Positions 4,021-64,000 of a stretch of DNA of 64,000 nt are shown here, piece by piece. A program made the translations under genes and the position numbers. The stretch's first letter is position 1; every line of letters starts with the position of its first letter. The notes under the pieces were generated by a model. It worked only from the letters and a program-made list of their open reading frames with translations, was not told the origin of the DNA and did no database searches. This DNA is from Rhynchobatus australiae. Taxonomy: Eukaryota. Where the stretch lies: contig JAUZTB010000077.1 of assembly GCA_034780895.1 (NCBI GenBank), forward strand, positions 11,831,615 to 11,895,614, read 5' to 3'.

Positions 4021-5294
4021 TTAACCTTAATTAGGCCACATAACATTTTGCAAAAGGGATACAGAATCACCGGCAAAGATGCAAGGAAGATTAGGGTGAT
4101 GACAAGTAAAGATTAGACCTATCAAGAAAGGGTGAACAATTAGAGGCTCTCAAATTGATCCTGTGACAACCTAAGACATAATGGTGGCACGGGGCTTTCA
4201 TGAGGTAGTGGTGGAAAAGGTCCTTCCACTTATAGGGAAGCCAGAACTTGATTCAAACGTGTATGGATGTTAGATGGCAAAAGGAAGGAGGATATGTGCT
4301 GCAGTTAGATGAAGAATGAATGCATTGTGTGGAGCATAAACATTGGCATAGCCTTGTTGGGCCAAATTGCCATCCTGACTGCGATACTACACTAATTGGC
4401 AAATTAGAATAACCAGTTAGTAATCTTTAAATGCTCTCTTTAAACATTTAAAATGGTCTGTAAAGTCAGTGACCAAAGTAATTTCACTACTCCTTCTATT
4501 GTGATTGATCCTCCCATTTGCTTATGCTCTCAAGAAAAGTGAGTTAAAAGCAATAATCCTAGCAGTGGGTGCAATAATGCTAATTGTTCTTGATTTCTTC
4601 AGCTACTCTCTATTACTTGTAATTTTTGACATTTCTCTATATATTGGTGTCCTAAACCCAAACTTGTCTGATTTATTTTTTTACCATTTTATTTTTATTT
4701 AATGTATACTTAGTTTTAATTGTCTTTCAAGTGGCTGCTTTCTTCCATTCTCTAATGATTCAAGCCAGTGTTTGAAGTCGGAAGATTAAATATGCTACTG
4801 AAGACCTGCAGTTCTGAAGTACTAACGTTCAGGGTTTGTGGTCCCAGAATTTTAGGATAGAAATTTGTAAACCATGGGTGATGAATAAGCATTGCACTTC
4901 ACCATTTTTTTTAAATCACTGTCAAAATTGCTATCTCTTGCTTCATGTCAGTTGTTTTATTAATGGACTGAATTGCTCAGCTCCCTACTAAATCCAGTTA
5001 TTGCCATTTAACTTTGTGCACTATCAAATAAATCTAACTGCTGCATACAAGTTTCTCAAAGGGCTTTAGTTGTTGTTGACATAGTCATGGACACTAAACT
5101 TCTTTTAAAGTGTTGATTTAATTCTAATACACAAATATTTGCAGGATAATGAAGAAAAGGGGAGAGTGGGATGAGAGCTGGCATGTCCCAGATGAGCCAA
5201 ATGTCCTGCTGTGCTGCAAGATTCAATGTCTAAGTGATTGATTATAGCCTTTTCAGATCTACAGGTGGTATTTTCCTAACCCACAAATTGCAAG

Positions 5295-5466
5295 ATGTCA
5301 GCTCGAAGTGGAAAAAAGAAAATGACCAAGTTGTCACGCTCAGCCAGAGCAGGAGTCATTTTTCCCGTTGGCAGGATGATGCGTTACTTGCGGAAAGCAA
5401 CATTCAAATACCGTATTGGAATGGGAGCACCTGTTTACCTGGCAGCAGTCATAGAGTACCTAGCAG
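5295..5466 (+). CDS. MACROH2A2: macroH2A2 coding exon 1 (histone-fold N-terminus)
   Basis: [57 protein letters not shown] matches macroH2A2 ([20 protein letters not shown]...) better than macroH2A1. 172 nt, ending at a CAG|GTAAAA donor. A candidate acceptor (tttcag) ends at 5256. The non-coding first exon/promoter was not seen in the window. Confidence 0.97.
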
Positions 5467-5804
5467 GTAAAAAGTATAAATTTAGAACATGAAGAACAAG
5501 CTAATTTACAGTTTTAACCATAAAGCCTTTATAAGGCAATGAAATGGATCTGTTTATTTTGGTGAATGTTTTATCAGGATTGACCATTGACTTTTGTTTA
5601 TTGCTTTTTCACACCAGCAAGATGATCATGTAATTTTTCCTTTAATTCTATGAATGTGATACTTTATCTTATAGATTTCCTAATATTCAGCAATCCTTGT
5701 GTTNNNNNNNNNNNNNNNNNNNNNNNNNNNNNNNNNNNNNNNNNNNNNNNNNNNNNNNNNNNNNNNNNNNNNNNNNNNNNNNNNNNNNNNNNNNNNNNNN
5801 NNNG

Positions 5805-5911
5805 CTGAAAGTCTGGAACTGGCTGGAAATGCAGCCAGAGATAATAAGAAGAGTAGAATAACTCCAAGGCACATTCTGTTGGCAGTAGCAAATGATGAAG
5901 AACTAAATCAG
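5805..5911 (+). CDS. MACROH2A2: macroH2A2 coding exon 2
   Basis: (A)[35 protein letters not shown], 107 nt, donor CAG|GTAAGG. The acceptor is mostly hidden by the N gap; only its final G at 5804 is visible. Confidence 0.95.
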
Positions 5912-6224
5912 GTAAGGCTCATGGTGTTAATTGTGTTGGTCTATATGAAACCCAATTTGTATGTTTTATTTATGCAGGTGGAATCTTTAATTTTCAAAAA
6001 TGAAAATGTGTTTACTTAAATGAAGGCTTTGCAAGACTTTGGAGAGTGAAACTAATTAGATAGATAACATTATTACAACATAGAAGGACACCATTCAACC
6101 CATTGGGTCCATTGCTGGTTCCCAGCAGAGCATTCCCATCATTCCTATTCCCTCTCCTTTTTTTTTCCTGTAACACCCCCTCCTCTCTTCCTCCACACAT
6201 GTTGACTCTTTTGCCATTTATCTA

Positions 6225-6345
6225 CCCTGGGGTAATTTTACAGTAGTCAGTTAACTTCCAGAACACCTGTGGGAGGTTGGAAGAAACTGGAGAACCGAGA
6301 GGATTTCCCATGTAGTCAAACAGACTGTATTGGAGGTTGGATCAG
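6225..6345 (-). mobile_element. V-SINE-like fragment
   Basis: ggggtaattttacagtagtcagttaac...ggaagaaactggagaaccgagaggatttcccatg, related to the copy at 36400-36570. Confidence 0.55.
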
Positions 6346-6809
6346 AGTTTATGAAAATCAAAAAAAATGTTACAGATGCTGGAAATTTGAAATAAACTGG
6401 AAATGCTAAGCTGGTTAGGAACATCTGTGGAAAGAGGAACATTTAGCATCACATTTCCTGGACCCTTCATTAGAATTGTATGTGTGCATGAAATGTTTCT
6501 TTCTGTGCTGTAAGATTCTATAAAGATTTTGAAAATATGGATAATGTGAGAAGAAATTAAGCAGTTGTGAAGGACACCTGCTAGTTATACTGATCTCAGG
6601 TAGGTTCTGAAATATATGTATCTTGAATTGAACTGACTTTTCTTAAGTTCAGTTGCATCATGCCATATACTGCAAAATCCTCTTGAGAATTGCCACATGT
6701 CTGCCTTTTGACCTGTCTGCTCCTTTCATCGAGGACCGTTATCTATTTTGAAGGGTTGTACTGTTGAGTGTAATAAAAACTTTTGTCATCCATGAGTGAA
6801 TTGTTATTG

Positions 6810-7060
6810 TCATCTTGGCCCATTGGGAGCACTCTTGCAAATCAAGACGATTTTAATTCCAGTTCCCTAGAGAATTTGAACGCATGGTCAATGCTGCACT
6901 TTTGGAGGTGCTTTCTTTTGCTTCGGGTGTATGTAGAAGATCCTCTGGTGCCTATGTTTTGTACAGTCATGCATCTGTCAACATTGTTAGTAGTGGTTAC
7001 AATTTAAAAACTAATTAATCAACTACAGAGTAATCCAAAGCACTCCCAAGTACCTAAGAA
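6810..7060 (+). mobile_element. Degenerate Deu-domain SINE
   Basis: gcactcttgc...gctgcacttttggaggtgctttctttt...gtagaagatcctctggtgcctat resembles the Deu core. Related to 16520-16760. Confidence 0.45.
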
Positions 7061-7689
7061 GTGCCACACAGAAGCAGTCATTTCAAAAATTTAAAAGTAG
7101 TTGATTGCATACATTTTCCTTTTCAAATTTAGTATGCAACAAGGACTATTGTACTGTAGTTTCTCCTGAAAATAAGTATCATCAATAATGAGACTAATGG
7201 TTGAAATATTATACATGTAATTGGTAGAATTCTATTATGCTCTGCAGATGTCTGGAGCAAAGCTTATTACGAAGATATTTAAAACATAATATATTTTTAT
7301 ATTTCATGGAATNNNNNNNNNNNNNNNNNNNNNNNNNNNNNNNNNNNNNNNNNNNNNNNNNNNNNNNNNNNNNNNNNNNNNNNNNNNNNNNNNNNNNNNN
7401 NNNNNNNNNNNNTTTATAAATTGGCTGTATTGGAGTAATTACAGGGGTGTGTGTTGGAAATCTTAGATACACTACCCTTGTTGATAAACTTGCATCTAGT
7501 TTTGTGCATTGACTCAGTTAATTCTGTATACAAATCAAATATTTCACTCATAAAGTGGTCCATTTGTATAAAGAGGAACCAAAAACAAACTGTCCCTTAT
7601 TTTGAAACTTACTGGTTTCAGATGCAATTTGCTAGAACATTAATGTTTTGTAAAGCTATGCCTATACAGTATTACTTTTGTGTCTATAG

Positions 7690-7902
7690 TTACTAAGGGG
7701 AGTAACAATTGCGAGTGGTGGTGTGCTGCCCCGAATTCATCCTGAGCTCCTGGCAAAAAAACGTGGTGCCAGAAGTAAAGTGGAAACCATTCTTTCTACA
7801 CCATCAGAAAAGAAGGCAAAGAAAGCAAAGCCGTCTCCAATCAAAAAATCTGCCAAGAAAGCATCTGTCAAAAAGGCTGCAAAATCCAAATCGGCCAGAA
7901 AA
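7690..7902 (+). CDS. MACROH2A2: macroH2A2 coding exon 3 (end of H2A fold and basic linker)
   Basis: ctatag|TTA... LLRGVTIASGGVLPRIHPELLAKKRGARSKVETILSTPSEKKAKKAKPSPIKKSAKKASVKKAAKSKSARK |gtatgt, 213 nt. Confidence 0.96.
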
Positions 7903-9099
7903 GTATGTATCGAGCACAAAATTCTTCCTCTCTTTTGAGGGATGCACTTATTGTGCGACAAAGGTGCTACGCTGTTTAGTCTTAGGAAATAGCCAATTAT
8001 TATCTTTAGAAGCTTCAATTCAGTGTTCCATGGTGCCAGTAAAACTCTAATCTGTGATTTGGAAATCCTGATGGTTAAGCATCTGGCTCAATGGTGATGT
8101 TTGCTATGTTCCCTGGGGCCATGGTTCCTCCTCTCCCTTCCTACTCTCTGGAATCTGTTCCTGCACTCCCAACTCATCAGGGTTCTGGTTCCCACGTTCC
8201 CTTTAAACTTGCCTGCCTTCACTGCAAAATATATTGCAGTACTGTGTAACATCTTCTTAAAAAGTGAACTAAGTGCATTGGGATATTAATAGAAATGATA
8301 TCCAATGGTCCAGAAAATTTGCTGGTCTGACACCACCAAAATCCAAAGCATGTCAGATTATCAGAGTTTTACAAAACCAAACTTAAGTTCCCAATGCATC
8401 TCAATTTAAGTTGTGCATTGTTTTTTTTTCATTTTCATCTCTGATATTGCACTTCCCTCATCAAACCAGTAAAAAGTAGCGAGGAGCTAATGTGATATTG
8501 CAGAAAACCCTCTAATTTGGTAAAAGTTGTGTTGATTTAACTTGTAGGATGTATAATATAAATTAAATGCCTCCATATTGAAGTGTAGGTTACTGGCTAA
8601 ATTAATTTGGATGTTTACAGTGTCATTTAATTTAAAATCGCATCCTCAAATATATAATGAATAATTGAGGTAGCTCCCTGAGGTTAAAAACCTGAAAAGT
8701 TACCTAATTTTTAATAGAGGAAATTTAATATGGGGCAAGAAAGGGGTGATGCAACAGGTTTGTAAATTTGGGCTTCAATCACAACAGTTCCAATAATGAA
8801 AATTATTCATTGTTGTTAGACAATTTATTACCAAGACGTTGTTAGTTATTCTAAGTTGTACTTACTGAGAATTTTTGAGTTTATTAGCTGGAGTACATTA
8901 GTGAAGGGAAATTTAACATTCGGTTTCCCATACTTTGCGCCTAACATGATTTTTTTTTCTAAAAATTGGTATCAATCAGGCTGTGGCGAGAGGGAAAAGC
9001 ANNNNNNNNNNNNNNNNNNNNNNNNNNNNNNNNNNNNNNNNNNNNNNNNNNNNNNNNNNNNNNNNNNNNNNNNNNNNNNNNNNNNNNNNNNNNNNNNNN

Positions 9100-9330
9100 N
9101 NGGGGGAAGGGGAAAGGGGGCCTCAGGAATGAGGGAAGACAAAAGAGGGGAAAAAAAGAGAAGGGGGGAAGAGGAGGGGTTACTGGGAGTTAGAGAAATC
9201 AGTGTTGAAGCCGTATGAGGTGTTGTTCCTCCAAGCTATGTCTGGCCTCAATGTGACAGTAGAGGACACCATGGACAGACATGTCAGTATGGGAGTGGGA
9301 TGTGGAACACAAGTAACGGAACCAACCTGA
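9100..9330 (-). mobile_element. Penelope-like element 3' fragment (C-terminus of GIY-YIG region)
   Basis: Minus-strand translation SHSHTDMSVHGVLYCHIEARHSLEEQHLI, typical of the end of a PLE ORF, followed by a pyrimidine-rich tail. Confidence 0.65.
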
Positions 9331-9395
9331 GTGCATTTCCCAATGACCTAATTTCTCAGGCAGTGATCTAAAAGAAAATTGCCTGGGTAATGACA

Positions 9396-9397
<2 letters not shown>

Positions 9398-9426
<29 letters not shown>
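9398..9426. repeat. (TG)n microsatellite
   Basis: About 14 perfect TG units. Confidence 0.95.
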
Positions 9427-9444
9427 CTGACACTGAAATATCAC

Positions 9445-10290
9445 CCAAAATCAGGTTTATTATCACTGACATATGTTGTGAAATTCATTTTGTGGCAGCA
9501 ATACAGTGCAAGACATAAAAATGACTATAAGTTACAGAAATAAATAAATCGTGCAAAAGAGGAATAACAAGGTAGTGTTCAGAAATCTGATTGTAGAAGT
9601 TGTTACTGACATGTTGAGTGTAGGTCTTCATGCTCCTGTACCCCCTCCCCGATGGTAGTAACGTAAAGAGGGCATGCCCCAGATGGTGAGGGTCCTTAAT
9701 GATGGGTGCTGCCTTCTTGGAGGCACTGCCTCTTGAAGATGTCCTCGAGGGCTGGGAGGGTTGTGTCCATGATGGACCTGGCAGAGTCTACAACCCTCTG
9801 CAGCCTCTTTCAATCTTGCACACTGGAGTTTCCATACCAGGTGGCGATGCAACAGTCAGAATGGTGTCCACTGTACGTGTGTAGAAATTTGCAAGTCTTT
9901 GCTGACGTAGCAAATCTCCTTAAACTCCTAATGAAGTAGATCCGCTGGCATGCCACCTTCATGATTGCATCAATGTGTTGGGCCCGAGGTAGACCCTCCT
10001 GAGATGTTGACGCCCAGGAACTTGAAGCTGCTCACCCTTTCCACCACTGACAACTCAATAAAGACTGGTGTGTTTTTTCCCAACTTCCCCTTCCTGAAGT
10101 GCACAATCAATTCCTTGGTCTTGCTGATGTTGAGTGCAGAGTTGTTGTTGCGACATCAGAATTGAAGCCAACCAGCCAATCTGTTTCACTCCTGTATGTC
10201 TCTTCATCACCATCTAAGATTCTGCCAACAACAGTGGTGTCATCAGCAAATTTATAGATGGCGTTTGAGCTGTGCCTAGCCACACAGTTT
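9445..10290 (-). mobile_element. Rex1/Babar-type LINE 3' fragment
   Basis: Minus-strand CVARHSSNAIYKFADDTTVVGRILDGDEETYRSETDWLV (RT motif C), followed by the ORF C-terminus and an aataaacctga-type tail. Confidence 0.75.
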
Positions 10291-10768
10291 ACAAGTGCCC
10301 TGTTTAAATTTTTAGCAGGCACAATTCGGCCCAAAATTCTTCATGAAAATATTCCACTCTCAAAATAACTGATTTTCATAAAATGTAATAATGTTGTACA
10401 TGCACATTTTCTGGTAAGATTTGTGTTTCTGTCTAGATTAAAATTAACTACACCTGAACATACATACAAGTAGAAAGCTGGTGATTTAATCTTAGCAGAA
10501 TGAAGTGCTCATAAACCATCCAAAGTTTATAGTAATATGTAATATCAAATATAAGATTTGTTTTCCTACTAAGGTTAATAAGAAAAATGAATATACTATC
10601 AAGGTCATTGTCATCCATGTTTTCACTGGCAATTCTGCTTTAGCACAGAACAAATAAAAGTGGTGTCCTTAATTCTGTTGGGAAATGTACCTGGGTCTGT
10701 ATTATGGACGTTTTGCATTATTTCAGCAACAAAAAATGAATGTTTCAAAAACCTTTTTTTAAAATCAG

Positions 10769-10879
10769 GGTAAACGAATAGAAAGCAATAAGGAAGGAGC
10801 ATCTAGTTCCACCTCAGATGATGTACCTGGTGAAGGTTTCACAATTCTTTCGACAAAGAGCCTTTTCTTGGGGCAAAAG
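10769..10879 (+). CDS. MACROH2A2: macroH2A2 coding exon 4 (linker to macrodomain start)
   Basis: atcag|GKRIESNKEGASSSTSDDVPGEGFTILSTKSLFLGQK|gtaagc, 111 nt. Confidence 0.96.
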
Positions 10880-11094
10880 GTAAGCTGTGTGGTATTTTTA
10901 ATTCAAAATTGTATTTAAATAAATTCAGACCTCTGGGTAGTGTGTATATTAAATGCATAACACATCAGTTCTGCAATTTTTATTTTGAGGATTAATGCCT
11001 GTTATGGGTATGTGCTAACTTAGCATAGTATAAATTGATATCAATTTAAGACTGGATTTAATTTAATTGTAATGTTTCAAAGTATGTCAATAGT

Positions 11095-11845
11095 TAACAA
11101 AAAGCTGGGTGAGATTGTGGGTTGCCAGGTGTATTCAGAGCCTGCAAGTTAAGTGACTGGACCTATATGTGGCAGATGCAGTGTAATAAATCAGTATTAT
11201 TTAAATGAAGAATGTCAATATACAGAGTGATCTGAATGCCTTTGTACCCAGTCTCTGAAAACAAACATGTAAGCAATTAAAATGGCAATTGGTTTGTTAC
11301 AAGAGGTTTTGTGTATTGGAGCAAGGATGTCTTGCTACATTTGTAAAGGACCTTGGTGACACCATAGCTGGACTATTGTATGTAGTTTTGGCCTTACCAA
11401 AGAAAATATATTTGCCATAGAGGGAGTGCAGTGAATGTTTGCCAGACTGTTTCTGAGATGGTGGGACTGTCACATGAGGAGAGATTGGCCTGACTAGGCA
11501 TTTATTCACTAGAGTCTGGAAGAATCTCATTGAAAAGTATGATGGGGCTTGAAAGGCTGGATATAAAAAGGATGTTTCCCCCAGGTTTGGTGAAGTTCTA
11601 GAATAATCTGGAATAAGACTTTAATATGAGGTGAAATTTCTCAGAACTTGGTGAATTTTTGGAATTCTCTAACACAGAAGGCTCTGCAGGCTAGGTATGT
11701 CTAAGAATGAAATGGATAGATTTCTAGACACAAAGCGTCAAAAAGTATGGAGAAAGAATGGGAGTGTAGTATTGGGTCAGCCATGATTATGTTGATTGGC
11801 AGAGCAGATGTGAAGGCTGCTCACTCAATGTCCTCGCTCCTGTTT
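11095..11845 (+). mobile_element. Decayed CR1 LINE 3' end
   Basis: aagctgggtgag...ggcagatgcagtgtaat...ccttggtgacaccatagctggactattgtatgtagttttgg (LVRPHLEYCVQFW-like)...ggaattctct. Confidence 0.7.
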
Positions 11846-11917
11846 TTTTAAGTCAAACTATCTTGACCATCTGATTGCTCTTAAAATGTTTACTAAATCT
11901 TTTTGGGTTTTTTTCAG

Positions 11918-12017
11918 CTGTCATTGACACAGAGTGAAATCAGTAACATTGGTTCAGTTAAGGTTGAGTGCATCATCAACCCAACAAATGCTGAAATAGA
12001 CCTTAAAGAAGACGTTG
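11918..12017 (+). CDS. MACROH2A2: macroH2A2 coding exon 5 (macrodomain, 1.2/2-type 100-nt exon)
   Basis: ttttcag|LSLTQSEISNIGSVKVECIINPTNAEIDLKEDV(G)|gtatgt, 100 nt. Confidence 0.96.
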
Positions 12018-12839
12018 GTATGTGTTTTTGTTCCCAGTGGGCCTGTAGTAGTTTTCCCAATACCTCAAGGGAGCTTCTTAGTAACAATTAAAAGTCTGCT
12101 GGATGTGCTTCCATTAAATTAATGATATAAATAAAGTTGCTTGAAAATATTGAAATATAAAAATGACTAACTTTGAGTTGAGTACATAACTACATGATTC
12201 ATTGTCAGCTCTAATCACTTTTTTAAAAATTTGCTTCCTCAAGCAATAAGTTCATCTAGCTGATTAATACTCCAAATAACCTTTCAAATGTTGAAGACAA
12301 TGCATTGACAAATCATTGTTTTGCTTAATTTATTTTATTTAGGTGACTAAAACTTTTCTGGAAAGATGAGAATGGATAGTAATGTGCTTCTATAAGATGG
12401 TTGCCCTTTGTCTTCATCTGCAAAGCCCTATAGCTCTCAAATTCCCCCTGTAAACCTCCGTCTCTTGGTATTTAAGGTTTCTTTACAATCTACTTTTTTG
12501 AAAAACCAAGCTTTTGGCCACTTGGCCTAATATCTCCTTATTTAACCCCGTCATTTTTGTTTTGCTTGATAACTCTATTTGGGATACTTCAGCAAGATTA
12601 AAGGCATAATATAAATGGGAGTTATTTCATAAAATAATCTTCCAAGATGAATGAGCAAACAAAGCATTAAACCCTTTTCTTGAATGTGTTCATTTCACAC
12701 TTTGATTTAAGATGTAATTAGATTTCTATTATGATGCCCTCCCCTCTCACATGTTGAAGTGGGCAACCGGAGTTACCATTAGATGTTTATGAATTTGCCA
12801 ACTTCAAGCAGATTTATCAATAGCCTAAGTCTCTTCTAA

Positions 12840-12953
<114 letters not shown>

Positions 12954-13629
12954 TAGCAATTTGTAATTGTTTTTACTATCTCTTTGATTGAGGTTACTTG
13001 CAGCATTGACAAAGCTGTACTTTGTCATGTGTGAGGAATATGCTTTGAAATATAATATTAAGATAGTCAAGGTGAGTGAAAAATTAACATTGGCACATAG
13101 TGATATCTCATCTTGCAAATGTTTCAACATTGCATGCAAAGTTAATCTCGTATTTTACACCAATATCCACTTTGCAGAATAGGCATGATGGGAGAACAAA
13201 GCAAGAGTATGTAGAAATATAAAAGACAACATGCCTCTGTATTTTAATTATAATTTAATAGCAAAGTTCTATAGTTACTGCATATTTTGCTTGTTATTCA
13301 ATTGTGTGGAACTGTAATGGTTTTTCTCTAATTCACGGAACATCATTGAATCCCAGAAGTACTTTCTGGATCTGATTTTTTTTTTGAGCTTGTTAATGAT
13401 CAGATTCGTGGGAGCCTATCTAAATTACAAGTTAATGGCATCAATTGAGGTTTGGTGCCTACTGAACTTGCAGTGTTCCTCTTATCAATGTGGTTAAATG
13501 TCATTCTCAGTTTGCTTTAGCTCAGTACTCCTCCATGTTTCTCTGGGTGTTCTGTTCATTTTTGCAAGTGTGGTGTTGCTCCCTTTTTGAGCATGTCAAC
13601 CAATATCCCTTTCATTGCATTTTACCCAG

Positions 13630-14040
13630 GTGTAATACAGCATGGAAACAGGCCCTTCAGCCCAACTCATCCTTGCCAGCCAAGGTGCCCTAGTCCCACA
13701 TGCCCACGTTTGGCTCGTATCTATCTAAACCTTTCCTATCCATATACTTATCCAAATATCTTCTATGTTGTTATTGTACCTGACTCTACTACTTTTTCTG
13801 GCAGCTTGTTCCATATAGGTACCACACTCTGCATGAAGGAGTTACCTCAGGTCCCTTTTAAATCTTTCCCCTATCATCTTCAATCTATGCCCTCTACTTT
13901 TTGTAAAGACTGAGTGCGTTCACCTTATCAATGCCCATCATGATCTTGTACACCTCCTTTAAGGTCACCCTTCAGTCTCCCATATTCCAAGGAATAAAGA
14001 CCTGCCCAGCCTCTCCCTATAACTCAGGCCTTTGAATCTG
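13630..14040 (-). mobile_element. CR1 LINE 3' end, reverse orientation
   Basis: cagcatggaaacaggcccttcagcccaac...ctggcagcttgttccata...aggtcacccttcagtctcc, the reverse complement of the CR1 3' UTR seen at 15325-15545. Confidence 0.7.
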
Positions 14041-14694
14041 AGGATTTTGAAATATTTTCTTAAAACCTTGCCATTGTTTATCTACAGGCAAATCTAATTT
14101 CCCAATCTACAATGAGCAATGCACCCCATATAATTGGCTGTATTTAACTTCAAGACTCCAAATGACCTGTCCCTCAAATGGAATGCAATTCTATCATATT
14201 GTCAATAGTTTGTCTTGCTCTGAGTTTACTAATTACTTTTGTGACATTACACAGATAAAGTCTAAGGTAACCTGTTTCCTAGCTGGTTCTACGGAATGTT
14301 GCCAAGACCACAATAAGTATTAAATTGAAATGTATTTGAAGTTCAAAGCAAGATGTGTTACAACTTGAGAAGGATGCTTTATATGCCTGCCAAGATGCAA
14401 TTGGATTTACAGTTTAGAAAAAAGAATGTCATTTTCGGATGCCAAGTAAAATTTATTTTCTTGATTCAACAAAAATGGTCATATCACATGACAGTTTACC
14501 TTAGGCACTGAATTGCAACTTATAACAATAATCATCCATTTGCCTTTCAGCATTCAAATCTGCACACTACCAATGCATCAGACTTTTGGCTTGGTTGCTA
14601 GACTTTACATTGAATTCAGTGGCAATTCCCTATGGTGCTGGGTTGGGGGGTAGATGCACTTCACATTCCAACCCCTCAGCTGTAAGTGAAAATT

Positions 14695-15545
14695 AAGAGT
14701 AGTGAATAGTGAGGAATTGTCAAAGGATAGAGCAGGATATAGATCATTTGGAAATTTGGATGGAGCAATGGCAAATGGAGTTTAATCCAAACAAGTGTGA
14801 GGTGATGCATTTTNNNNNNNNNNNNNNNNNNNNNNNNNNNNNNNNNNNNNNNNNNNNNNNNNNNNNNNNNNNNNNNNNNNNNNNNNNNNNNNNNNNNNNN
14901 NNNNNNNNNNNNNNNNNNNNNNNNNNNNNNNNNNNNNNNNNNNNNNNNNNNNNNNNNNNNNNNNNNNNNNNNNNNNNNNNNNNNNNNNNNNNNNNNNNNN
15001 NNNNNNNNNNNNNNNNNNNNNNNNNNNNNNNNNNNNNNNNNNNNNNNNNNNNNNNNNNNNNNNNNNNNNNNNNNNNNNNNNNNNNNNNNNNNNNNNNNNN
15101 NNNNNNNNNNNNNNNNNNNNNNNNNNNNNNNNNNNNNNNNNNNNNNNNNNNNNNNNNNNNNNNNNNNNNNNNNNNNNNNNNNNNNNNNNNNNNNNNNNNN
15201 NNNNNNNNNNNNNNNNNNNNNNNNNNNNNNNNNNNNNNNNNNNNNNNNNNNNNNNNNNNNNNNNNNNNNNNNNNNNNNNNNNNNNNNNNNNNNNNNNNNN
15301 NNNNNNNNNNNNNNNNNNNNNNNNGGTTTTTTTTACACAGTGTGCCTGGAACGTGCTGCTGGGGAGGAGGTAGAAACCAATCCGATAGCAGTATTTAGTA
15401 AGCATTTAGACAGATACCTAAACAGGCAGGGAATAAAGGGATATGGACCATGTGCAAGCAGATTGGATTATTTAGATTGGCATCGTGGTTGGCATAGTGG
15501 TGGGCTGACGGGCCTGTTCCTGTGCAGTACTGTTCCATGTTCTAC
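14695..15545 (+). mobile_element. CR1 LINE 3' part (mostly gap)
   Basis: NCQRIEQDIDHLEIWMEQWQMEFNPNKCEVMHF, then after the gap a CR1 3' UTR ending in gggcctgttcctgtgcagtactgttcc. Confidence 0.8.
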
Positions 15546-15805
15546 AAAATGGCGCTCCCAACCACTTTCCAAAGTTTGTTCAACTGTACTTCCAAAACTC
15601 ATAACCTCTAGTGCGTGCAAGGGAACACAATCACTTCTAAGTTCCTCTCCAAAACACATTAAATCCTTGGAAATTGCTGCTGCTGCTCCTCACCAGTATG
15701 ACCATGAGAGCATCTTCACTGCAGGATTATAATAGGAGCAGGAGTAGGTTAAGTGAACCTTTAAGAAAATAGGAATGGTTACTAAATGCTGTCAACTATT
15801 CCTAG

Positions 15806-16027
<222 letters not shown>

Positions 16028-16519
16028 TAAAATGTATTTTCTGACTTAAAGTAGAGGTATGTTCACAGTTATTGGAACATGCATCAGTATCTTGAATAAA
16101 TTTGACTTTGTTCTTTTAAAACAAAAATATGGAAATATCCACTTGAGAAAGCTTATTGTGATCATTTACTATGAATTCCCATTGACATTTATGGTGTGCC
16201 ATTATTCTGCTTTGCTTTGCCAGGATTCTACTGGTTCAGTAAAATGTGAGATTCATGTTTCTGCTTAAACAGGTATTGAGTGGAGAAATTTTAAAATCAA
16301 ATCTCCAAATGCCTCTTTTTAGACAAAAGGTTGTCAGATCATTTGAAGAGGTTCACTTTTATTTTGGAGAAAAAATAAAGACTTGTCTTGGGGTCACGAA
16401 AGGTTCTATTTAAATATATCTCAAAGCACTTAACAAGCAATACTTTGCATTTTAATATTTGGTAAGCAATTTTACATGGACTCTGTAAAATAACTGTGCA
16501 ATAACAACCAGGTCTGCTG

Positions 16520-54550: not shown

Positions 54551-54615
54551 CGATTTGAGGGAGTTTCCACCCGCTGGAGTGAGATTTTCCCATTGGGTTC
54601 CACAAAGTCTTCTAC
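54551..54615 (-). CDS. GBF1: GBF1 exon
   Basis: VEDFVEPNGKISLQRVETPSN(R), 65 nt. Confidence 0.95.
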
Positions 54616-58377: not shown

Positions 58378-58554
58378 CTCTACCATGGCCTTGGGCAAAA
58401 GCTCAGCGCGGAAAAGTTGTAGCATTGCATCCATAATGTTCTTCCACCCCTCTCTTAGAATATCACCATGACGATGTGACAAATTAAACACAGTCTTGGC
58501 TGCCAGTTGAGCCTTCACGTTACTACCAAAAACATTTGGAAGATTCTCTACAGA
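58378..58554 (-). CDS. GBF1: GBF1 exon (HDS1)
   Basis: SVENLPNVFGSNVKAQLAAKTVFNLSHRHGDILREGWKNIMDAMLQLFRAELLPKAMVE, 177 nt. Confidence 0.96.
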
Positions 58555-59387
58555 CTGCAGGAAAAGAGCAGAATACAACTGATTAGCAACAAATAGAAAG
58601 CCCAGTACCAACAGCTCATTTAATTAAGACTGACAACACATGAAAAACTGAAGGAGAAAGATTCAGCCCAAGAACGAACTGAATTGGAGTGATAATAGAA
58701 AGGGAGAGGAACAAGAATAATGCAGAGTGCAGGAATACATGAATGAGACCATAGTTAGTTACGGATTTGTACATTGTCACTCAGGATATAACAAATCCAT
58801 GAGCACATTTTAACAAGTGGATAATATGCACCCAGATGTGTTACGTGTGTTTGAGATGATACATAATATCACACAAATATTACTCAATGATACTAAATAA
58901 GTGAAAGAGGGGAAAGAAACATACTGCAAATCTGCTCATTACCCACTTCTGAAATCTGATCAGTTCTTTTGAAAGTAATGTGATCCTCAAAGTATGAGTA
59001 TTATATTCATAGTTAAACAGTTGAACTTTAAAGCANNNNNNNNNNNNNNNNNNNNNNNNNNNNNNNNNNNNNNNNNNNNNNNNNNNNNNNNNNNNNNNNN
59101 NNNNNNNNNNNNNNNNNNNNNNNNNNNNNNNNNNNCCTCCTCTTCCTCCCGCCCCTCTCCTCCTCTCTCCACCATTACCACCTCCTCCCCCCTCCCCCCG
59201 TCCCGGCCCCGGTGCTGAGGAGACTGAGTGCGGCAAACTCCGTGCGCCTCTGCACGGCTGCTCGCCTGAATCTGCCGGAACAGCGGGAGGGGAGGGTCTG
59301 AGGACACCACCCCCACTCCCCACACCCCCGCCGCGGGCCGGGCCCGGCCGGGCGCGGAAACGGAAGGGTTAACGCTCTCCGCCGACT

Positions 59388-59397
59388 GGAAAGTCCC
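59388..59397. promoter_or_regulatory. Canonical NF-kB binding site
   Basis: GGAAAGTCCC is the reverse complement of GGGACTTTCC (Ig-kappa/HIV kB element), about 205 nt upstream of the ATG. Confidence 0.75.
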
Positions 59398-59473
59398 GAA
59401 GCCCGGCTCTAAGGCAGCGGCGGACGGCGGCTGAAGGCAGAGGCAGCCGGAGCAGCGGACGCTCGGAGCGGGA

Positions 59474-59590
59474 GCGGGATCCACTGCGGTAGGACCCCGG
59501 CTGCGGGATCCACTGCGGGACCCCGGCTGCGGGATCCACTGCGGGAGGACCCCGGCTTCGGGACCGGTGCGGGACCCCGGCTGCGGGAGC
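59474..59590 (+). repeat. GC-rich minisatellite in the presumed 5' UTR
   Basis: About 4 copies of a 25-29 nt unit gcgggatccactgcgg(..)gaccccggct, directly upstream of the ATG. Confidence 0.85.
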
Positions 59591-59601
59591 CGACAGCCGG
59601 C

Positions 59602-59893
59602 ATGGAACTCCCCGCAAACCTGTCGGACAGTAACTTGGGGAAAGCGGCGCGGCTGCGGGCTGTGATCGCGGACGATGTGGTGAAGCCGGCGGACGGACGG
59701 CGATCCCTGCACCACCTGCAGAATCTGCACACCCACACGCTGCAGCTGCCCAGCACCAAGCCCTACCCGGCCCCGCTGCGCAGCGTGTTGGAGCGGACGC
59801 TGCTGGACCCGGAGCTGAGACGAGCCCTGCACGCCGCCAGGACCCTCAATTGGTGCCCGGAGCTCCGCAGGCAGCACCCGCTGCGGGTGTCTG
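59602..59893 (+). CDS. First coding exon of a divergent A20/TNFAIP3-like OTU deubiquitinase, antisense inside a GBF1 intron
   Basis: Strong Kozak context ggcATGG. MELPANLSDSNLGKAARLRAVIADDVVKPADGRRSLHHLQNLHTHTLQLPSTKPYPAPLRSVLERTLLDPELRRALHAARTLNWCPELRRQHPLRVS-G|gtaag aligns end to end with A20 residues 1-99 (LP..L..SN..KA...R....D..KP..G..HH....H..TL...LNWC.E.R...L...G). The phase-1 donor falls just before the expected GDGNC catalytic motif. Confidence 0.85.
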
Positions 59894-60424
59894 GTAAGCG
59901 AACTGTCCTCGTAGCGGAAACCGCTCTCGCTCGGCGGCTCCCACCAGGCGCCCGTTTCACGGGAGCTCCGAGTGCGCGGGGGTGGGGGCGAATTTCAACC
60001 ATCCCACAGTCCACCGAGCCGCACCACGGGTCTGGGCCCGGAGACGGAACATCAGACACGGGGGACCACCCTGGGGCCAGAGTCTTTGTTCCCGCGGGTG
60101 TGAGGGGATTTGGGGGAAAGGCAGATAACAGATGGGTGAAAGATCAGGTAGTGTCCCGAACCTCGGAGCCTCTCCCGGGACTGACTGACTCCCTCCTCCT
60201 CATTCCACGGTTGTTGCAACAGCGAATTCCGTGCAGTGACCTCCCACGGCGGGCTGATCCGCTCGTTCCTGGCAGGACGTGGGTGAAGATTCCTCCCCTC
60301 CCCTCAGGAAGTACCTGCTTAAAATCAGAGCATCATCTCCCGGGTGTCGGGCTACCACACTCGGACAGCGCCATGGGAATTATTGAGTACCAGACAGCGG
60401 ATCAGCCGGCCCCTGTGGAGAGGG

Positions 60425-60570
60425 GAGCTGTTAACGTTCCGGGGAACAGCTCTGATGAAGGGTCCTTGACCCGAAATACTCGCCCCTTTTCTCCCTCCAC
60501 AGATGCTGCCCCCCTGCTGAGGATTCCCAACGTTTTCTGTTTCAGGTTTCCAGCATCGGCGGTGTGTTGT
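60425..60570 (+). mobile_element. Penelope-type terminal repeat with a hammerhead-like core
   Basis: CTGATGA-A-GGGTC-ctt-GACCC-GAAA...ctccacagatgctgcc...ctgctgaggattcc...tttccagcatc. Confidence 0.6.
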
Positions 60571-61971
60571 GGTTTTCCAGTTAGTGTGGCAACTATTTAA
60601 GGCAATAAATGCTGGTCAGACTCTGAACCCAGAATAGAATTATTCATTAGTCGATATTTTATGTAGATAACTTTCAGAGGTTGAGGCATTTTTACACGCA
60701 GAGGCCCTCCCTTAAACAGATGGAGTCAGGGGTTTTGCTGGGCATGAATTAATCTCACTGAAGTGATATCCGCTCAGGTGAATTTCGGCATCTCCAGAGC
60801 TGGCAGAACTCCCTCACTACCGAGTCGGAGACAGCTGGGAGGGGAAAGGGGGTGAGACCAGCCTGCGCCCAGTCTGTAATCATTTCAACACAGAATAATC
60901 AGTGGCAGATACTAAATGATCCATGAGAGACATCGTTACATAACGGCTCATCATCCCCAAAGTTCCACAACTGTTGTGTGGGAAAATGCGACATTAAGGC
61001 CGTCCTGTTACCCAGCGAGCTGAAGAGAATAATCCAGAGAGGGTGAACGTCAGAGGGGCGCTGAGCTGTTCTGTCATTGATTGGAAGGGGATCCAACACA
61101 TCAGGTAATTTCCTCGGGAGCTTCCCTCACTAATTATCCACCACTTCCTCCAAGTAGCAGTAAAGAATAAATATTTTATGAAGGCAATGCTGAGGAACCA
61201 TTCACAGCATTTGTCTGCCCATAAAAGATGTTGATTCGATGAGATATGATATGTTCTATTTAATCATTGCCATTTGTGCACCATCTTCCTCGTATTGTAA
61301 TTGCTGAGGAAGATGAGAAATGTCTTGCAATCCTTGAGTAGATCATAAGTATGTTTCCACCTAGTGTTGAGGTAGCCACCTTATTACCTGCCACCTACCG
61401 CACCTCCGTGAAGTATCACCTGAGACCAGGGCAGTTTTAAACCTACATCCAGATCTGTAGCCTTTTGCCTTCAAAGAGTCCTGGGCTGAGTATTTTTCAC
61501 TTCACCCATTGGGTCCAGACCACCAGCTGCTCCTGTTCCACCGCCTTCAGTATATTTCTTTAACAGATGTGGTAACTAAAATGAACCAATGACAGAAACA
61601 ACAGCTCATCTAAATTCTTCTGAATTTTTGTTTTGAGAGGCATTGACTATGAAAATCATTCTAATTTAATGAAGATTAACCGCAGGTATGACTTTAAATA
61701 AATGTCAATAGGACGGGATGCAACTCAAAACTATAAGCATAAATGCTGTAGGAATCTTTTGTGATGGAAAATGCAGCAAAGTTGATTAAAGCAAGAGATA
61801 AAACAACATGTTTCACTTAGCTAAACGACCTCATGACACACATTATTACTATCTTGCACAGAATTCATTCCAGTATGTTTGAAGCATGCATGTTCTATGC
61901 ACACACTTCTGCCAAGCAAAGATGGATAAAATATTGAACATACAATTGATTAGCATTTGGTAACATTTTAC

Positions 61972-62208
61972 CTGAAACCAGATATTGCTTTCTGTATTAT
62001 TGTTTCATCTAAACTCTTGTCAAAGACATAGGAGAGTGCCGCTATGGTGGGACCCCAGGTCATGGTGAATAGGTCATGATCAAAGCTTCCAGGAGGCACG
62101 TGGAGGAATATGCCTTCTGGTGAGCTCCCACGATTCAAAAGTAAGTTCCATATATAGTTCTCTCTCACAAAACCCGTTTGTTCCTCTGGCATCACAATTT
62201 CATCATTC
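61972..62208 (-). CDS. GBF1: GBF1 exon (end of Sec7 domain / start of HDS1); the gene continues beyond the window
   Basis: (K)NDEIVMPEEQTGFVRENYIWNLLLNRGSSPEGIFLHVPPGSFDHDLFTMTWGPTIAALSYVFDKSLDETIIQKAISGF(R), 237 nt, ttttag acceptor and gtaaaa donor. Confidence 0.96.
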
Positions 62209-64000
62209 CTAAAAGGTAAAAGAATTATTTGCTTTCAGAGATATTTCAGTTGCACAGAGAGCAATAGAGAACTATAATGACATTTGATTCTGTAAATTCA
62301 GTTTGAGTCTTTTGTTTCTAACCAACATTTTCTTTTAATATTGCAGTAGTTTACTTTTGAACAGGAAGAAAAAAGTATTCCAGGGATAAGCATATTTTTC
62401 AACTTGTGTACTGTTATGTCAGCTTTTATCTGTAAATTAGGTATAGCTAACATTTGTCCAGCCCAAAAGAAATCTCCCAAACAAAAACACCTTTCAACAT
62501 CAAACTGTCATAAAATCTAAAATAAAAAACTCTACCTACTAATATAAAATCTAATTGCCATATTGTACTATTTTGTAACTTACAATCCCTTTACAACCAC
62601 ATTTCTTGTTTAGTTAGTATTCTTCTCAACAATAACAAACAGCAGTTAATCTATAACAATAGTAAAGATATGACTAAGAATTATTAGGATTTCATTGAGT
62701 AAATGCTCCATCTGCTGTGATACCGATTTACACACAAGAAGAAAAACCAATCCCTGGAGCGTGTGCATGTCAACCATCAGAATTGCTCACAAGACTTGTT
62801 GACTGGGATCAACATTTTCTGATAAAGATCACTCAAACAAGCCTGTCAGGTTTCAGTTTCCAGAGATAAATTGACCATATGTGATTTTGAAAACACTAGT
62901 AAAAATCCTGGAAGTCTATTCAAAAACAAGAATTTAACTAATCAGTAGCCATAAACTCATAACTGAACCATATTCAGGAGCCATTTGTGGATTGCCAGCT
63001 GTTTTGTTTTCGAACTTTTTTTTTTAAATGTCTTCATCAGTTTTATTTTTCCAGTTTTCCAAATTGACACAAATAAGAATGCTGATCAATAACTCCAAAT
63101 CTTTTGTGTTACAATACAAGATTATATAAAACAAATCAACTCATGCATCTTTATATTATTTTGTAGCTAAATAGAAAATAATTCATTGGATGCGAAGTCC
63201 TTTGAGGATGTGTCAAGTTGGTTAATAAATACTTCATTCTTTCTTTCCAGTTAAATTTAGAAACATGAAAGAGTCCCATGAATCAGTTACACTTACCATT
63301 AATACCCTTAGTTGGTTCGGATAAAAGTTTTTTTTAAAACACTAATTCCAGAAGTAAAGCTAACTTTCAATAATTAAAAAGCATGATTCCCATCATCAAA
63401 CAACCTAGGTAAACACAAGAACATTCTGCATCTTGGGTAACTTGAGCTGTTAATCTTTGATGCAGCCAATCCTTGCATTACAGTGAATTAAACTACATCT
63501 CTAAAAATCTTTGCCAAGCTCTTCCTCTCTGACACTTCCCATGAACTTATAAACGTTACAAAAATCAAAATCTGCATACTCAGTGGCAAGACTCCAGTGG
63601 TGGGAAGGGCAATGATACAAATAGTTTCCAACATCTAACTGGCTTATCCAGCTTATCACTACACATTGCTATTTTTAAAAAGCATCACAGCCACTGAGGT
63701 TTATGAGGAACATACGAACCAGATCAAAAGGACAATCATCAAATTTTGCTTCCTACATAACTGGCCTATCAGTCCTTAATTGAAGTGATTTGCACTTAGT
63801 GTATTAGATATATTTTTCATATTTCTGAGCGGTCCCCAATGAGTTCACTCTCACAGTGATCACCATCTCTTTTGAAAGTCAAGACTTCAAAATGAACCCA
63901 AAATTGCAACTAGCCACAGAAATGCTTTATTAAATTTATTTACAAGTTACACTAACAGTTCACATTGAGTAAAAACAGCAAGCATTGATGTCAACAGATG

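Follow-up and report, generated by a model that had tools for sequence, protein, structure and literature searches.

The locus described here raises the question of whether a perfect NF-kB binding element (kB site) in the DNA of the ray Rhynchobatus australiae belongs to a working gene, what that gene is, and whether it is likely to respond to NF-kB. The window, by which we mean the whole 64,000-nucleotide stretch that was analysed and to which all coordinates refer, holds most of the 3' half of GBF1 and, within it, an A20-like exon preceded by the kB site (Table 1). Exons at 5280-16030 on the forward strand read, we presume, like macroH2A (a histone H2A fold, a lysine-rich linker and a macro domain in the list of open reading frames). 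We lean, by a little, toward the view that jawed vertebrates have a second, ancient A20 gene, NF-kB-inducible and putatively non-catalytic, and that the site and the exon represent its proximal promoter and its first coding exon.

Table 1. Features of the locus, with positions in window coordinates.
Feature	Position	Strand	Remarks
100-N scaffold gap	59036-59135		Abuts the island on its left; truncates the upstream promoter
CpG island	59136-60600		GC 0.71/0.60, CpG o/e 0.82/0.73
GC box GGGCGG	59149-59154	-	Sole canonical GC box 5' of the ATG
Two CGGAA ETS-type cores	59355-59359, 59361-59365	+	Tandem
42-nt block around the kB site	59360-59401	+	In relative C the flanks have 16 listed differences, the block none
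Canonical kB 10-mer GGAAAGTCCC	59388-59397	+	Exact match; 204 nt 5' of the ATG at 59602; reads GGGACTTTCC on the - strand
Tandem repeat, period about 29	59474-59588	+	Presumed 5' UTR; relatives B and D have it shorter by 51-61 nt
First coding exon of the A20 paralog	59602-59893	+	Length 97 codons and 1 nt; Kozak context strong; GT donor at 59894
GBF1 3' half, 18 exons in order	28858-62213	-	Lacks one exon, at the 59036 gap
GBF1 exon, left flank	58378-58554	-	From about residue 1059 of P0127
GBF1 exon, right flank	61971-62210	-	To about residue 1027 of P0127

A sequence-only reading of this DNA had reported the kB element, and the exact 10-mer is confirmed as the sole exact copy within the 64 kb window. 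The element, which we take to be the Ig-kappa/HIV-type consensus kB site and at which binding in the ray is putative, fits both the GGGRNWYYCC consensus and the canonical NF-kB probe. It is contained within the standard NF-kB EMSA probe as given in a passage of PMC4106899. In dinucleotide shuffles of the 466-nt island 5' of the ATG (59136-59601), the exact 10-mer arises by chance at 0.0012 on either strand (20,000 shuffles) and at 0.0006 per shuffle on the same strand, with GGGRMTTTCC at 0.007 and GGGRNTTYCC at 0.065 per shuffle (30,000 shuffles for each of these three). The loose consensus GGGRNWYYCC is common by chance (0.33 per island shuffle, 20,000 shuffles) and is not enriched across the window (2 observed against 4.3 expected), the other match, at 54559, being inside a GBF1 coding exon. 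The weight of the match thus lies in an exactness that is predicted from human A20, not in the mere presence of a kB-like site, and the motif is real and probably meaningful, though unsurprising. A role for the site in serving GBF1 was set aside, as its position is mid-gene for GBF1, yet ahead of an ATG exon.

The human A20 (TNFAIP3) promoter has the identical 10-mer, likewise oriented, with a second kB site 2 nt beyond it (passages of PMC2278136; probe in PMC2778522), and the claimed match to the first human kB site is thereby borne out. The ray and human promoters share this 10-mer, its orientation and a GC-rich setting, and one flanking base on each side also matches, giving 12 nt in all; such a 12-mer would look the same whether it came by descent or by convergence. 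Where human has two adjacent kB sites the ray has a single one, there being no second GGGRNWYYCC match in 59136-59601, as the earlier reading had remarked, with the stretch left of 59136 hidden by the gap. The ray promoter is also without the E-box and the GC-box array, and has one GC box and tandem ETS cores instead. Of the regulation proposed to be shared with A20, the promoter architecture matches in the first kB site, in its proximal-promoter position, but not in the second kB site, E-box or GC-box array. The two promoters differ also in the place of the ATG, which in the ray lies downstream of the site in what is apparently the first exon, whereas exon 1 of human TNFAIP3 is non-coding.

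The island upstream of the ATG is distinct in composition from the GBF1 introns (GC 0.33-0.36, CpG o/e 0.16-0.27), and searches of it found no E-box, TATA box, upstream ATG or pyrimidine-rich splice acceptor. A transcription start may lie close by, given the CpG island together with the lack of an acceptor and of an upstream ATG; contigs cannot show starts, and those of the run taken to be RNA (X6) give no cover of 59136-59475. Other start sites may exist, since RefSeq isoforms of 656-659 aa in three rays (P0003, P0004 and P0007) are without the N-terminal OTU part. The tandem CGGAA motifs noticed beside the kB site are real, with a chance of 0.005 per island shuffle for a pattern that was picked after being seen, but relatives C and D both carry A>G at 59359, which alters the first core; the second falls within the 42-nt block that has no listed difference in relative C. 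The mention of 'GC boxes' in the plural was overstated, there being one GGGCGG, about 230 nt from the kB site, against 2.0 expected.

Conservation of the site was examined with contigs from 4 of the 12 listed runs, representing three related organisms (X2 for organism B, X3 for C and X11 for D, with X6 RNA by guess), aligned to 59136-60135. It is readable in one of the three, C, which is close to the source species, and in which a single DNA contig spans 59267-59512 with all 16 of its listed substitutions falling outside the 42-nt block. The differences listed for C number 37 of the 43 counted, and because lower-depth rows are still among those listed we infer that the kB site is intact there. 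In simulations at the divergence of C, chance alone leaves the 10-mer unchanged in 40% of cases and a block of this length around it in 6% (p about 0.06), so that an apparently intact site in one close relative of the three compared is suggestive only. No RNA run was among the matches listed in the run search, and metagenome contigs gave 526 pattern matches with 0 confirmed relatives.

The exon behind the site is homologous to the N-terminal OTU region of A20, matching human A20 residues 6-95 with an E value of 1.6e-11, and a Pfam search with the 97-aa translation found no family. Its identity is 91% to Pristis over 56 aa, 70% to Mobula/Hypanus, 51-53% to Heptranchias and chimaera, and 36% to shark canonical A20, a ranking that identifies it with the 'TNFAIP3-like' gene of rays, sharks and chimaera. 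That gene is already known in the sense that it is annotated in RefSeq, the annotation being automatic only, and in the relatives it is not on the GBF1 chromosome. The Pristis RefSeq model (P0002, 1068 aa) has the 5' UTR and exon start read in another frame, which is probably an annotation or assembly frameshift. A contig of run X6 departs from the genomic sequence at the donor and then adds 10 letters that translate as G-E-G-N, with which the following exon opens in relatives, and a DNA contig of the same organism reads through into the intron. Between the window and relative C the exon has 10 synonymous and 7 non-synonymous differences (pN/pS 0.26, p=0.006), a pattern by which it is judged to be under purifying selection. 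The splice junction and the pN/pS ratio together argue that the gene is live in this group. What had been called an A20-like gene is accordingly an A20-family exon that is spliced in a relative, but it belongs to a distant paralog and not to A20 itself.

Sharks and bowfin have both canonical A20 and the paralog, and a profile search extended the set to a second bowfin gene, one protein from an eel and five further proteins. A tree built with IQ-TREE from the OTU region of 29 chosen sequences (363 columns) recovers a paralog clade of shark, ray, bowfin, eel and the five further proteins with support of 100/100, sister to canonical jawed-vertebrate A20 (99.4/100), with 97.1/98 at the joint node and the lampreys outside it. 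By this phylogeny the ray gene is not the ortholog of A20 but a member of the sister clade to all jawed-vertebrate A20s, to which it is only about 30-33% identical. The duplication would fall after the lamprey split and before the split of sharks and bony fishes, as expected of a 2R ohnolog; canonical TNFAIP3 has OLIG3 and PERP as its neighbours. The paralog persists in cartilaginous fishes as well as in bowfin and an eel; confinement to cartilaginous fishes was rejected given the bowfin and eel members of the clade, and no named tetrapod protein was found in it among those examined, five members being without species assignment. Two A20-like proteins of 1290-1390 aa (P0392 and P0371) lie on ENA/JGI contigs of 10-90 kb. 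Literature searches returned no description of the paralog or its promoter in the text they covered, while subscription journals, an ohnolog database, bioRxiv supplements and gene-tree resources may list the gene; TNFAIP3 was not found in one supplement of PMC13450315 or in the searched supplement files of PMC8455134.

The age of the duplication bears on whether the paralog responds to NF-kB. A20 is LPS-regulated in amphioxus and zebrafish according to passages of PMC7644770, which implies that inducibility predates the duplication, and NF-kB inducibility of the paralog is plausible on the strength of its promoter sequence. Alternatively, the gene could be live with a promoter that is mainly constitutive, of CpG-island/ETS type, to which the lone kB match contributes little. 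The single site, the lack of a TATA box, E-box or GC-box array, the loose kB matches in a third of shuffles and the block conservation p of about 0.06 all agree with such a promoter. We nonetheless regard it as unlikely, in that chance seldom yields the exact high-affinity 10-mer, which was predictable from human A20, and the inducibility of A20 is the older trait.

The placement of the exon requires separate consideration, as it stands antisense between two GBF1 exons, inside a GBF1 intron. The GBF1 exons from residue 947 on are all in order save for residues about 1027-1058, whose exon is expected in exactly the interval that holds the A20-paralog exon; a sensitive search did not find it in the window, although a control exon of equal size was recovered with an E value of 5e-16. 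The paralog and GBF1 are on different chromosomes in 15/15 relatives with both genes, six of them rays (lengths of 27.5 against 38.4 Mb in Pristis, 72.1 against 40.6 Mb in Mobula birostris), the chromosomes being told apart by length and the relatives comprising six named by genus and nine assigned by accession series. Callorhinchus and Scyliorhinus, for which the assembly or species was not matched, are left out of this count. GC and CpG drop to GBF1-intron levels near 61600. The gap, the missing GBF1 exon, the composition step and the differing chromosomes are signs of misassembly, and the placement is by the chromosomal comparison probably that, or else an orphan fragment. No assembly gap separates the paralog exon from the GBF1 exon at 61971, and a misassembly would consequently require a chimeric contig. 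The segment at 60450-60580, which we take to resemble a common elasmobranch SINE/LINE tail, is a candidate place for the join, and self-comparison of 58500-62500 by blastn found no repeat marking a junction. A 23-nt inverted repeat (61062-61084 and 61586-61608, 78% complementary, 501 nt apart) has its right arm at the GC drop, and may be due to chance. The window has 15 N gaps, ten of exactly 100 N, typifying a fragmented, scaffolded draft.

Chimeric assembly is the likeliest of the explanations for this placement and we think it probable, followed by an orphan duplicated fragment, which is doubtful, and by true nesting. If the window piece is a real orphan duplicate of the 5' end of the gene (promoter, exon and start of the intron) in the GBF1 intron, the kB site would be a passenger and the working copy would be elsewhere. 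The window has only the one paralog exon, is contiguous with GBF1 on the right without a gap, and presents an arrangement found in no relative, all of which such a duplicate would explain. Moreover, 5/6 changes that set the window apart from a letter common to B, C and D are G/C to T, with 0 in reverse, but five GC-to-AT changes are within ordinary mutation bias. The open frame, the intact ATG and donor, the strong CpG island, and the lack of any listed promoter position at which B and C share a letter not seen in the window are at odds with an orphan duplicate, and a disturbed assembly is indicated by the GBF1 exon that is missing and the gap next to it; as an account of the locus as a whole a duplicate is therefore not likely. 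Very improbable is a true move of the whole gene in this lineage, interleaved antisense with GBF1 and with later exons beyond 64000: the window sequence as given and the lack of a gap to the right of the exon would allow it, but the two genes lie apart in 15/15 relatives including six rays, 59894-64000 contains no further paralog exon, and a GBF1 exon is missing at this very spot. The window has a single exon of the gene, placed within a GBF1 intron beside a gap, and no relative shows this arrangement, so that the kB motif does not independently prove a live gene here, for which it had been taken as independent support.

Returning to the favoured reading of an ancient, probably misplaced paralog, the catalytic and zinc-finger features of the gene are read from relatives, the catalytic codon and zinc fingers being outside the window. 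The catalytic Cys is replaced in 19/19 species of cartilaginous fishes (17 Ser, 1 Asn, 1 Arg; five short isoforms missing the region are not counted), and outside that group the position is Ser in bowfin, Gly in eel and Ser in the five further proteins, while it is kept in 105/106 canonical hits and in lampreys and invertebrate outgroups. The catalytic His is variable and often lost. In the alignment the ZnF6 cysteines are missing from the paralog, which hence does not have seven zinc fingers, but it shares with canonical A20, including that of catalytic-Cys mutant mice, an OTU domain followed by A20-type zinc fingers; the ZnF4 [YF]FG motif is present in 18/18 species and the ZnF7 FG motif in 17/18, the exception being an incomplete gene model, and ZnF7 is very close to that of mammalian A20. 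Ubiquitin-binding residues of ZnF4 and ZnF7 matter for A20 function according to passages of PMC13646509, and catalytically dead A20 mice are healthy whereas ZnF7 mutants are inflamed (as summarized in PMC10919355). The same review takes a missing catalytic residue as the criterion for a pseudo-DUB and warns that some pseudo-DUBs proved active, and its pseudo-DUB passages make no mention of the paralog; by that criterion the paralog of the relatives is a pseudo-DUB, and is predicted to be inactive. Databases label the Cys-less paralog as plain 'TNFAIP3' or 'ubiquitinyl hydrolase 1' (P0474/P0321 from Amia, P0018 from Callorhinchus), the latter being the UniRef name of the chimaera protein.

As the paralog family has no catalytic Cys, the parallel brake on NF-kB that was proposed for this gene must, if it exists, be a non-catalytic one. 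We predict that RelA/p50-type dimers would bind the single kB site with assistance from the conserved ETS core, which lies some 22 nt upstream, that transcription of the paralog would rise after TNF/TLR signals, and that its product would damp NF-kB without cutting ubiquitin by binding linear chains through ZnF7 and K63 chains through ZnF4 at receptor complexes, where the dead OTU domain would serve as a scaffold. The position of the fragment in GBF1 would in this scheme be an assembly error, as is probable, and the rest of the gene would lie elsewhere. A variant in which the gene is NF-kB-induced but acts as a modulator or decoy of A20, by pairing with it or by competing for ubiquitin chains and partners, draws on the lost catalytic Cys, the variable catalytic His, the absent ZnF6 and the low identity to canonical A20. 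We consider this improbable given the closeness of ZnF7 to that of mammalian A20 and a report that non-catalytic binding carries much of the inhibitory role of A20 (in part of PMC10919355).

That an A20-family gene should have a kB site in front of it is expected, and by itself this would be ordinary; the gene behind the site is the more interesting part. Two annotation traps attend it, in that databases name these proteins hydrolases or plain TNFAIP3, and the nested gene that the assembly implies is probably not real. Tentatively, and as one possible history among others, we suggest that early jawed vertebrates duplicated A20 and that one copy lost its Cys at once, was retained by sharks, rays and chimaeras and by some ray-finned fishes, and is still wired to NF-kB via a kB site that was already present in the promoter before the duplication, making it a natural inducible 'enzyme-dead A20' that acts purely by its ubiquitin-binding fingers. 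On this history the Cys-less copy would have been retained for over 400 million years. The importance of the deubiquitinase activity of A20 in vivo is debated, as set out in sections of PMC10919355. A paralog that was without the Cys from its origin, that kept ZnF4 and ZnF7, and that may have kept its NF-kB feedback wiring would constitute an evolutionary test of that question.
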